Position numbers and translations under genes: made by a program. DNA of 64,000 bases from Candidatus Omnitrophota bacterium (lineage in GTDB: Bacteria; Omnitrophota; Omnitrophia; Omnitrophales; Aquincolibacteriaceae). Of the stretch, positions 6,301 to 9,300 are shown in pieces. The notes under the pieces were generated by a model. The model was given only the letters and a program-made list of their open reading frames with translations. It had not been told where the DNA came from and did not search any database. How positions within the stretch are numbered: position 1 is the first letter of the stretch; each line of letters starts with the position of its first letter. The DNA lies in NCBI GenBank assembly GCA_043803685.1, contig JAZDJU010000098.1:1-64000 (forward strand), in the 5' to 3' direction.

Positions 6301-9300
6301 TGAGGGCCGGACTTTTCATGGATTTTGGAGGCTCCGAAAAGAGGTCCTGGATAACCCCGAACGATTCGTTCAAGATCCTGCCGTTTATGAGCTGGTCCAT
6401 CATTTTTTAACTTCGACCGTTTTGGATGAGAATACGGTTATTAGCGGGGTTTCTGCTGAGCTCCTGACGATATTGGAAGCTGCTGCGGAGCGTGCGGCAC
6501 AAAAATCGACTGTCGAGGTTCGGTCAGAGACAAGAACAGCAGCGCGTTGGGTCCGGCGCGGAGTGGTATTCGTTGTCTTAGCGGCTTTGTTGGGTCTTGC
6601 CGCGTGTGCTCTTCCTCCGTCCCAAGCACCGCCGTCGGTCTATACGCCTCCTCGTGCGATAATATTGCCGACTCCCAAAATTGTAAAACCAAAAGATATC
6701 GATCCTCCGAAGTTTCAGGCCCCAGCGCCCAAGATCCCATTTACCGCACCGAAGATCCCTTCCTTCCCGCGCCGGTCCGAGATGCGTTTTGGGGTGAAAG
6801 CAGCCGACATCGTCTGGGGTGGAGTGATCACTCTGGTCACGGGGGTTTTGTTATTTTCATTGAATCCATTGGCCCAAAGCCCAAACCAGAATGTTTTAGG
6901 GAGTGATCGGACGAAGGCCGAAAAAATCCTTCAGGTGACTAAGAATGCCTCGGATGGACAACGGCATAAAGCCGCAATCGCCGCGTTAGAAGCCGGTAAA
7001 AAAGGTCAGCCGGTGACGGTTCTGTGGTCTCCGGACGGCGCTGTGATTTGGCGCGGTACACAACCGGCTAAACTCGAATCGGTGACGGGAACGGTTCAGG
7101 AATCGATGGGCAGGATCTTATTAACCACAACCGACGGAAGACATTTCACGATACCCCTCAGCTCTGTCTGGGCGATCTGGTTTCCGGAGCTTTCCTCAGC
7201 GAAGACGAAACGCTCGGAAGTGAGAGAAGCAACAACAGGGGAACGGGGAACGGGGAACGCAAACGTTAACCGTTCAGCGCGTGACGTTCCCCGCGGCGAA
7301 GCCGCAGAGTCTGCAGTCAGTCGTCAGTCGTCTGTCGTCCCGACCGAAGCCGCTCGTTCGGAAGTCCGCGACATGGGGGAGTGGATCACGAATGTATTCA
7401 AGGTTATTCGCGTGGTTGCGGTCTTGATAGCTTTGGCAGGATTTTTAGGCCCGATCATGGATAGGGACATGTTTGCCTGGATTTTTCCTTCGCTTGGCGA
7501 CATGAACCCGATGACCGCGAGGAATGTTTTTGTTGCGAGCATTGCATTAAGTTTCGGCCTCGGAGCATGCTGGATCGTGGGAGCGATCAAAAAAGCACAG
7601 GAACGCGTGAAGCACGCGGCGATGGAGAAAGTTCTTGCGGACAACGAGGCCATGCACAGACAAAGAGCCGCCTTGTCTCCTGCTGGTATTTTCGAAATAG
7701 CCTTGTCCGGCGAGATTGAGTACGCCAATGACATGGCGCTCCGGATATTCGGTTATACCCAAGAGGATTATAACAAGCGGATGAATGTTCTTGAGTTGGT
7801 CGTGCCGGAAGACCGCGACAGGGCACAGCGTCGGCTGAAGGAGATCCTGGAGGACGGCGAAAATGGAGGAGCGCCGGCTGCCGGGGAATATACGGCCTTG
7901 CGTAAAGATGGGACCCGATTCCCTGTTTTGATCAAAACCAAAGTCAGGTTTAAAGGTGGCAAGCCGGTCGGTTTCAGTGGGGCGATCTCGGATATTACTG
8001 ATCGTAAGAGGGTGGAGGAGGAACTTCGCAACAGTCAAAAACGACTGGAAAATGCTCTGAAATCAGCCGGGATGGGGACTTGGAACTGGAACATAAAAAA
8101 AGACAGGCGTCATTACCATCCTCAAACCTATCATTTGCTTGGGATCGATCCGAAGCAACCTGACGGCACCTCCGCTGAATCTTTTTTAAAAGTGGTGCAT
8201 CCTGAGGATGTCGAGAAAGTAAGGGAAGCTTTTCGGAGGACTGCCCGTGAGAATGTCCCTTATGAGGTGGAGTTTCAGGTGATCTGGCCAGACAGCAGTA
8301 TTCATCATCTTGCGGTTCGTGGCGATTTGATCCGTGATGCGCAGGGACAACCCGCGAGACTCGATGGCACTGTCTGGGATGTTACTCGGGAAAAGATCTT
8401 TGAAGAGGAACTTCAAAGAAGTCATGCCCGGCTTTCCGATTTTGAAAGGCACGCGCCCGGAGCTCTCTATCAGTTTCAAATGTCCCCGGACGGCCAGTTC
8501 AGTTTGCCTTATGGCGGTTCGAGTTTTGATCGCAGCTTTGGTATGGATCCGATGACTCTCGATGAAGATGCTTCGGCGCTTTTTGAGGCCATCCACCCGG
8601 AGGATCGTTCGTCGGTCATAGACTCTATCAAAGAATCCGCCAACAGCATGAGGTTATGGAGTCATGAATTCCGGGTTGTTTTGCCTAACGGAGAAGTTCA
8701 GTGGCGTCATGGTAGTTCTAGCCCCAGGAAATTACCCGATGGCAGCATTCTCTGGAATGGATTTGTTACAGATGTTACGGATCGAAAGCGGGCGGAGGAG
8801 GAACTGAAAGAGAATCAAAAACTTATGGCACATCAGGAACATTTGGCCGCCTTGGGGGAGCTTCTTGCCGCCGTGGCACACGAATTGAATAATCCGCTGG
8901 CGACCTTGGAGGGCCTAGGGGTGCGTGTTGCTCAATTCTTTGCCAAGGGGGATACCACTCATGCGGCGGAAAGTTTTTCTGCCATCCAGGACGTGATTCT
9001 GCATTTGAAGAAGACCCTTAAGGATTTTCTCCTTTCCGTGCGGGCGGAGAAGTCTTCTGAAGGAATGTCTGTTTTTCCGATCGCTCGTGCTATTGAAAAG
9101 GCGGTGGAGTTTAATTCACTGGCCATTACTAGCAGTCAAGTGGTTGCACATCAGCGAGTTGACGATTCTCTTCGCGTCTATGCGAATGAAAGTAAGATGA
9201 TTCGAGTCTTTTCGAATTTGATCAAGAACGCGATTGATGCTCCTAATGGCATGGGGGATAAGCAGATCACGATCACAGCCGAAAAGAGTGCGGATCAGGT

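Follow-up and report, generated by a model that had tools for sequence, protein, structure and literature searches.

A putative lipoprotein cassette set between recurrent RSExR delimiters in a giant protein of an Omnitrophota bacterium

The stretch of DNA analysed here, the window, comprises 64,000 nucleotides (contig JAZDJU010000098.1 of assembly GCA_043803685.1, positions 1 to 64,000, forward strand) from a Candidatus Omnitrophota bacterium of the Aquincolibacteriaceae. Three giant open reading frames (ORFs) lie in tandem within it, at 2-3013 (open at its 5' end), 3356-16111 (4,251 residues) and 16287-32363 (5,358 residues), and are referred to as giants 1, 2 and 3. Deep inside giant 2, directly behind one copy of a recurrent five-residue motif, RSExR, we found a lipoprotein-type signal peptide, followed by a short Pro-rich peptide and a further copy of the motif, which we call the delimiter. 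Export signals that make sense only at an N-terminus stand right behind delimiters and have been preserved by selection; on sequence grounds, this is strong evidence for the giants being polyproteins. We consider cleavage of the chain at RSExR likely, with its own N-terminal domain of TIKI/Ere fold as the probable protease; the exposed segment would then be lipidated by Lgt and trimmed by LspA.

Results

A lipoprotein cassette inside giant 2

The features of giant 2 that concern us are:

3356..16111, + strand: giant 2, a single ORF of 4,251 residues, split into modules by 15 R[SA]ExR motifs; it ends KSA-stop and has five Cys in all
3356..3451, + strand: N-terminal Sec-type signal peptide, predicted from sequence, with a putative cleavage site
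3452..5314, + strand: conserved N-terminal domain of predicted TIKI/Ere/ChaN-like fold, candidate processing protease
6521..6535, + strand: upstream delimiter RSETR (CGGTCAGAGACAAGA), residues 1056-1060, putative cut site
6536..6559, + strand: n-region TAARWVRR, with three Arg
6560..6595, + strand: h-region GVVFVVLAALLG, uncharged
6596..6607, + strand: lipobox LAA-C, Cys codon 6605-6607, predicted lipidation site
6605..6772, + strand: predicted mature Pro-rich cationic lipopeptide, 8 Lys and Arg against 2 Asp and Glu
6773..6787, + strand: downstream delimiter RSEMR, putative cut site
6788..7210, + strand: next module, 141 residues

The segment TAARWVRRGVVFVVLAALLGLAA directly follows RSETR and leads into the Cys codon, TGT. 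The signal spans residues 1061-1084, far from the N-terminus of the chain, and its Cys, residue 1084 of 4,251, is the 24th after the motif. A basic n-region, an uncharged h-region and a lipobox with its Cys together make up, by rule, the pattern of a substrate for Sec and signal peptidase II (SPII). The initial annotation had described this order of elements, and its description proved exact; it had also correctly placed the signal about 1,060 residues inside the protein and seen that a short Pro-rich peptide (56 residues from Cys to motif, 30% Pro) runs to the next delimiter. The module at 6788 does open with the signal-like segment that had been claimed for it, an uncharged hydrophobic stretch at residues 1149-1167, though without a lipobox. 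A Pfam search gave no match for the lipobox module, for the module at 6788 or for the N-terminal domain, and an Atlas search with the 6788 module gave no usable match.

The delimiter is a protein-level site

R[SA]ExR occurs 48 times in the three giants of the window. RSExR matches sit in the giants' reading frames, with one other on the plus strand and four on the minus strand elsewhere in the window, and their synonymous codons vary; a DNA-level element was therefore rejected, and we treat the delimiter as a site in the protein. Codon choice within the motif is biased, Ser being TCN in 95% of cases as against 65% elsewhere and the x codon tending to end in G (GTG 59%, GCG 70%, ACG 64%), which suggests that the motif was spread by DNA copying. 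An R[SA]ExR-type motif was the top enriched gapped 5-mer in most, not all, of the genomes sampled. Neither the motif nor internal lipoboxes were described in the literature searched, a search outside of which the preprint supplements lay.

The delimiter varies by lineage, with RAExR, RxEMR and RPExR forms at the loci of G027, G028, G030, G060, G051 and G054. Among these loci are giants that share the N-terminal domain and lack R-x-E-x-R enrichment; G060 has LSDxR instead. Low-complexity peptides recur beside delimiters (GGRKAEGG and SSILHP types, ERGTG...EAA and AKAEGASS...GEAA; about 3830-3920, 7226-7354, 11640-11750, 13184-13282 and 14903-15037). They resemble short DNA repeats or hairpins translated in frame, and similar inserts lie between motif and signal in modules of G002 and G010.

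Export signals are enriched behind delimiters

Signals were scanned for by rule, with lipobox and twin-arginine patterns taken from general knowledge. The discovery set joined 95 regions covering 79 giants (frames of at least 2,000 residues among 150 listed matches) to this genome's 17 giants; 93 of these 112 pieces were motif-rich and amounted to 376,558 residues from 30 genomes, with 977 motif sites. A lipobox followed 10 of the 977 sites, as compared with 1.58 ± 1.24 at random starts (maximum 6 in 300 draws), 2 of the 10 hits coming from the genome used to shape the rule. Hydrophobic h-regions followed 93 sites against 33.7 at random, and twin-arginine patterns 6 against 0.82. The excess of lipoboxes goes beyond that of hydrophobic segments as such: among 450 hydrophobic segments, 104 start within 30 residues of a motif and 289 more than 60 residues away (the 57 between were left out), and a lipobox ends 12 of the 104 but 4 of the 289 (p = 4.8e-5), one of those four following a degenerate RSEVQ. 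When the 18 lipobox-like Cys of both sets were collapsed by hand to 12 lineages, 6 lay 12-40 residues past a motif, where 7.5% are expected (p = 1.1e-4).

A held-out set of 91 pieces (of 124, after removal of overlaps) supplied 532 further sites. There, h-regions again exceeded expectation (35 versus 12.6, a number reached in none of 500 draws), as did twin-arginine patterns (3 versus 0.27, reached in 3 of 500 draws). Three results weigh against the lipoprotein reading: no lipobox followed any of the 532 held-out sites, where 0.27 were expected; all 10 discovery hits came from one genus, and several are homologous; and A-x-A sites for signal peptidase I were not enriched (40 of 104 segments near a motif, 100 of 289 far from one). 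The genus is the one under study, itself the source of 743 of the 990 motif matches, and one Pro-rich module in the held-out giants follows a degenerate RSEIG. Thus the comparison of motif-derived with random starts that the initial annotation had proposed came out in favour for lipoboxes and h-regions in the discovery set and for h-regions and twin-arginine patterns in the held-out set, and failed for held-out lipoboxes. Because the held-out set repeats the h-region and twin-arginine results and not the lipobox result, we conclude that export signals are generally associated with delimiters. The lipoprotein class is also real, but so far we know it from this genus alone.

Other internal signals

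Two further modules of the window bear internal signals:

21810..22532, + strand: second internal lipoprotein cassette, in giant 3; RSELR, then MAG-C (Cys codon 21897-21899) and 212 residues from Cys to the next motif
1013..2089, + strand: module of giant 1; RSEVR, a membrane-anchor-like segment and a NAGPA-like domain

Only 3 of the 73 Cys in this genome's 17 motif-bearing giants pass the lipobox rule. Two of them are those of giants 2 and 3, 24 and 23 residues after a motif, respectively, the one in giant 3 being absent from the initial annotation; the third lies in the second helix of the histidine kinase module. No homologue of the giant 3 lipoprotein was found among proteins of 129-413 residues. 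The ordinary lipoproteins of this genome end in similar xxGC or xxAC boxes. Some internal signals are followed by recognisable cargo, typically of exported kinds (subtilase, Fn3/Ig-like, NAGPA, GH2/ILEI), and homologous cargoes may differ in signal type, twin-arginine in one and Sec-like or anchor in another: a module of G004, 38% identical to the NAGPA-like module of giant 1, opens with a twin-arginine-like signal instead.

A second family of internal lipoproteins, GLAG-C-E, has a signal much like that of the Pro-rich modules (L105:934-1350, L002:15418-15876, L060:7343-7822 and 2966-3445); one member also has a twin-arginine motif, and one giant of G010 has the module twice, the copies being identical in the part compared. 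The module L078:11558-13063 combines a twin-arginine motif, a lipobox-like GG-C and a subtilase (Peptidase_S8), in a genome lacking a TatC match.

The Pro-rich module family and its apparent stand-alone homologue

The lipobox module of giant 2 probably belongs, as a distant member, to a family that comprises 10 modules in giants and one apparently stand-alone protein, P0003. Five look-alikes came from the discovery set, and members from G002, G006, L190 and P0002 were added by genome and library searches. Cys-Ala and a delimiter on both sides (one of them degenerate) are present in all 10 giant-borne members. Cys-Ala is invariant in the 9 aligned modules, which are 23-38% identical to that of the window, and recurs in the tenth (P0002); the Cys is found in P0003 too. 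The nine aligned members have 43-70 mature residues, 22-32% Pro and a net positive charge. Leave-one-out shuffles give strong support for homology to 8 of the 9 members outside the window (0 of 500) and weak support to that of G009 (12 of 500). In a search of this genome's proteome, the profile has the window's module as its best match, aligned along almost the whole profile (E = 0.006); weakening its assignment, 25 of 1,000 shuffles reach its score, which makes the family tie borderline, and BLAST of the module against P0003 gave no significant match.

P0003 has 99 residues and its own Met, lies on a 70-kb contig and is a family homologue (none of 1,000 shuffles reaches its score), 51% in comparison with the G006 module. 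Its C-terminus, PVH, falls at the point where four modules end PH-RSExR, and the window's module does look, to judge from sequence, like a whole gene set between delimiters. Against this, P0003 could be a fragment of a broken giant, and its stand-alone status is to be read as apparent. Among 66 family genomes the profile detected no member standing alone, its two weak matches being unrelated lipoproteins, and no stand-alone relative of P0003 was found in 401 genomes of the phylum, in viral contigs or by protein search. Two small ORFs that matched P0003 were rejected, being antisense to a housekeeping gene.

The lipobox cysteine is retained while other cysteines are purged

Cys makes up 72 of 76,149 residues in the giants (0.095%) and 8,842 of 765,370 in ordinary ORFs (1.16%), a 12-fold purge. 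Over 16,543 columns aligned to ordinary paralogues from this genome (paralogues, not orthologues, were used), the giants have 42 Cys against 185, of which 21 are retained; 24 of 34 paralogues have more Cys than their giant counterpart and 1 has fewer. Retention of the lipobox Cys in 10 of 10 diverged modules, while the giants purge other Cys, argues for its use and against a relic. The segment is real, non-random and under selection; cleavage, protease, compartment and function are inferred.

A candidate protease at the N-terminus

The N-terminal domain is present in 61 of 61 genomes, and His50, Glu78, Arg503 and His531 (codons 3599, 3683, 4958 and 5042) are invariant in 71 sequences. Its model (predicted local distance difference test, pLDDT, 83.8) has a parallel beta-sheet core, and five of its top six structural matches were EreC (Z 8.8, root-mean-square deviation 3.8, 155 residues aligned), HopBA1 (8.7), the Bcr136/135-type structures 2qgm (8.3) and 2rad (8.2), and ChaN (7.2). 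Passages of Jang et al. (PMC6254334) place EreC, HopBA1, the Bcr136/135-type proteins and ChaN in the TIKI superfamily, and report that the endopeptidase RRSP requires E3900, H3902, E3930, R4001 and H4030. When matched by spacing, the His-Glu and Arg-His intervals of our domain are 28 and 28, compared with 28 and 29 in RRSP.

These similarities make the domain a candidate, and we think it probably the agent that would cut the giant at RSExR. Several observations tell against this: the first Glu of the 2His/2Glu set is apparently replaced by Gln47, Z-scores near 8 are middling, Foldseek returned no match to the domain at E <= 0.001, and esterases and non-enzymes share the fold. Searching PDB sequences with the profile of the N-terminal domain gave nothing useful.

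Discussion

Proposed processing and its alternatives

In the processing that we propose, the giant would be cut at or beside its RSExR delimiters, freeing modules, and the cut would make the lipoprotein-type signal a new N-terminus; Lgt would then lipidate Cys 1084 and LspA remove the signal, leaving a 56-residue membrane-anchored lipopeptide. Cleavage at both delimiters would explain both ends of the module. At a guess, the product is an unstructured cationic Pro/Tyr-rich tether that acts on an envelope.

It had been suggested initially that the signal is usable only if cleavage exposes it, or else is a relic of a captured whole gene. Exposure by cleavage is favoured, but 'only' was too strong, as an internal helix with its N-terminus inside could in principle meet Lgt and LspA in an uncut chain. 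The giant would then be a polytopic membrane protein, the helix an internal signal-anchor whose Cys is lipidated, or at which LspA cuts, with no processing upstream, and RSExR a linker. Published work does treat these giants as membrane proteins. A second helix lies 12 residues into the next module, and with residue 1056 on the inner side the helices at 1069-1087, 1149-1167, 1350-1368 and 1391-1409 would bring the kinase back to that side. An uncut chain could satisfy this membrane parity, which counts against cleavage. We nevertheless regard this explanation as unlikely. From its N-terminal signal up to residue 1069, giant 2 has no strong helix that would put 1056 inside, and a return helix occurs within 60 residues in only 1 of 9 family members, 4 having none in the next 500 residues. 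Two lipobox modules stand in series and in the same orientation in both G016 and G006, and twin-arginine signals cluster at motifs though they require an N-terminal position.

A pure relic, in which whole genes were captured with signal peptides that no longer function, is about as improbable, if anything a shade more so. The agreement of module ends with those of the apparently stand-alone gene, a mild enrichment of Met in the first three residues of signal-like modules (14 of 151 versus 64 of 1,352, p = 0.03) and the possibility that twin-arginine signals predate the loss of the twin-arginine translocation (Tat) system, which 3 of 20 genomes of the genus keep, all speak for it. It is disfavoured because every giant-borne member has kept the lipobox Cys, whereas other Cys are retained in 11% of cases; in addition, the lipobox stays conserved across members whose mature parts differ in length, genomes without TatC are no poorer in twin-arginine signals (counts are small), and homologous cargoes bear different signals. 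That the module looks like a whole gene between delimiters stands, since exposure by cleavage and origin from a captured gene are not mutually exclusive.

We think it very unlikely that the segment is an ordinary membrane helix with a lipobox-like Cys at its end by chance. Motifs are often followed by hydrophobic segments in any case, lipobox-like helices do arise by chance (as at residue 1405 of giant 2), and the family tie of the window's module is not firm; but lipoboxes are in excess near motifs even when hydrophobic segments alone are compared, homologues share the architecture and Cys-Ala, several of them in giants whose N-terminal domains are closest to that of giant 2, and giant 3 supplies a second case within the same window. 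Internal initiation of translation would make the signal N-terminal without proteolysis, and is the least credible of the alternatives. The motif DNA is often GAG-GTG (34% of E-V pairs in motifs, 12% elsewhere), which can resemble a Shine-Dalgarno sequence, and Met occupies position +1 or +2 of some signal modules. For the giant 2 module this route is closed, because there is no in-frame ATG, GTG or TTG between 6473 and 6563. Most lipobox modules likewise lack a start codon before the h-region, those that have one pair weakly with the anti-Shine-Dalgarno sequence, and initiation would not free the C-terminal end of the module.

In which cytoplasm would the giants be cut?

Since Sec, Tat and lipoprotein signals are all read from the cytoplasmic side, cleavage would take place in a cytoplasm. 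The giants might be cut in the producer's own, using its own Lgt and LspA; or the Cys-poor chain might be delivered into the cytoplasm of a host or prey, whose Sec, Tat, Lgt and LspA would place the products in the host envelope. Given cleavage, we judge the cytoplasm slightly more likely to be that of a host or prey than that of the producer. This lean rests on the twin-arginine signals of genomes in which TatA and TatC were not found, the N-terminal signals of the giants, the Cys purge in domains of cytoplasmic type, and the separate housekeeping glycogen synthase that this genome has beside the giant-borne one. Passages of Seymour et al. (PMC10066038) propose that most members of the phylum live as predators or parasites.

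The twin-arginine data are as follows. In the discovery set, 9 of 10 twin-arginine-like signals lie within 45 residues of a motif, against a background of 11.5%; in the held-out set all three do. Sister modules have the pattern S/T-R-R-x-F-L plus an h-region, and there is one match to the Pfam family TAT_signal (E = 0.0011, 19.3 bits, under the 22.7 cut-off). TatA and TatC were found neither in this genome (91% complete) nor in 16 of 19 relatives in the genus, several of them 95-97% complete; the same 3 of 20 genomes have both. Seven of the 10 signals are in genomes without a TatC match (7 in 274,631 residues versus 3 in 101,927 residues with TatC, both small counts), and three internal ones lie 18-37 residues after delimiters in giants of this genome (C80 and C123; L268:978-2981, L269:4160-7096 and L269:2378-4144). 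No N-terminal twin-arginine signal was found among its ordinary ORFs, where, of three pattern matches, two preceded the first Met and the third was internal. Such signals in genomes where TatA and TatC were not found hint at cutting in a host cytoplasm, an interpretation to which we give somewhat less than an even chance.

The full scenario, in which Cys-poor polyproteins are exported into a host or prey microbe and cut at RSExR by the TIKI-fold protease, some pieces then being exported, lipidated and installed in the host envelope by host machinery, is possible but, with all its parts taken together, we judge it less likely than not. Several considerations weigh against one part or another of the processing that we propose. 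The putative protease lies behind a Sec signal, which is hard to reconcile with cutting in the cytoplasm of the producer; internal membrane helices, which should halt Sec, fit poorly with export of the whole chain. No delivery machine for the giants was identified, although five secretins are present. As to the host, Sec may route the twin-arginine signals, which would then be relics, and the producer has Lgt and LspA of its own. The genes of its pathway are:

47627..48915, + strand: lspA (47627-48181) and lgt (48178-48915), housekeeping, 15 kb from the giants

The producer cell thus has a lipoprotein pathway of its own; a search of this genome for Lnt gave no match above the cut-off.

Relation to known systems

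The giants show traits of polyproteins, a recurrent protein-level site at module borders and signals directly behind such sites, the lipobox class being unreplicated in the held-out set. The nearest parallel is the C-prM junction of the Flaviviridae where, according to passages of PMC7601889, an internal signal stands directly behind a protease site and a cytosolic cut by the virus's own protease precedes the signal-peptidase cut across the membrane. That system is viral and eukaryotic, uses signal peptidase rather than Lgt and LspA, and has a fixed gene order, whereas the giants are chromosomal bacterial genes with shuffled modules and three signal types, whose cleavage we infer from sequence.

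MARTX (multifunctional autoprocessing repeats-in-toxin) and large clostridial toxins are likewise giant bacterial proteins with interchangeable enzyme domains freed by a built-in protease, as described in parts of PMC3153235 and PMC4453568. Like our host scenario, MARTX domains are delivered to a host cytoplasm, and the TIKI-fold endopeptidase RRSP is among MARTX effectors (PMC6254334, in part). No Pfam family of RTX repeats or of the cysteine protease domain was found in the window's three giants, which differ also in their N-terminal Sec-type signal, their TIKI-fold candidate protease, the bacterial export signals on the parts that would be released, and in that any target would be a microbe. 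Giant 2 belongs to neither the flavivirus-type nor the MARTX systems. With ordinary Sec/SPII lipoproteins its cassette shares the n-region, h-region and lipobox Cys; unlike them, it has no start codon of its own, lies about 1,060 residues from the N-terminus and ends at a delimiter, not at a stop codon.

Published Omnitrophota giants and Archaeovorins, as far as passages of the reports (10.1101/2023.11.21.568195; 10.64898/2026.06.07.730766; PMC10066038) describe them, come from the same phylum and have an N-terminal signal, many enzyme domains and scattered membrane helices; ours run from 2,000 to over 10,000 residues, as against 30,000 and more in the published Omnitrophota giants. In parts of their text, West-Roberts et al. 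(10.1101/2023.11.21.568195) proposed cleavage and named C39 and S8 peptidases, with the cleavage points unknown, and Nielsen and Lui (10.64898/2026.06.07.730766) treat giants as single membrane proteins, internal signal calls being suppressed as chunking artefacts. The word 'lipoprotein' is absent from the main text of both preprints, and 'motif', 'cleav' and 'polyprotein' from that of the latter. In the literature searched we found no bacterial polyprotein with a lipoprotein precursor inside it.

The polyprotein reading bears on how bacteria use proteins of 5,000 to more than 100,000 residues. The 79-residue module offers a small bench test, for its lipidation would report cleavage. If twin-arginine signals are indeed read by the Tat system of another cell, bacterial symbionts would have a new means of remodelling their hosts, and a Tat-positive bacterial host is predicted; cutting in the host would, if true, amount to virus-like polyprotein delivery between prokaryotic cells.

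Further features of the giants and the window

The modules of giant 2 include a PAS-histidine kinase-receiver, a glycogen synthase and unknowns. Enzymes of cytoplasmic type occur within the giants at 7370-11014 (PAS-histidine kinase-receiver), 13298-14887 (glycogen synthase) and 26151-27722 (hexokinase). A J-domain module in C57 has its DnaJ-like start directly after RSEMR and matches the housekeeping copy at 60%.

Complete giants end in an amphipathic-looking helix followed by Ser-Ala or Ala-Ala (3002-3013, 16100-16111 and 32352-32363 in the window). Such endings are found in 14 of 14 non-truncated giants of this genome and 24 of 35 in the fetched loci, as opposed to 32 of 2,184 ordinary ORFs; they bring to mind a ClpX tag of the ssrA type, or else a C-terminal signal for export or for a protease. 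The model of the C-terminal module is weak (pLDDT 65), and helical hairpins were its sole structural matches. Directly after the giants and tyrS lies a cluster of Gld-type ABC transporter genes (33615-37998), and further on, at 57708-58613, a gene for a CAAX protease (Rce1-like).

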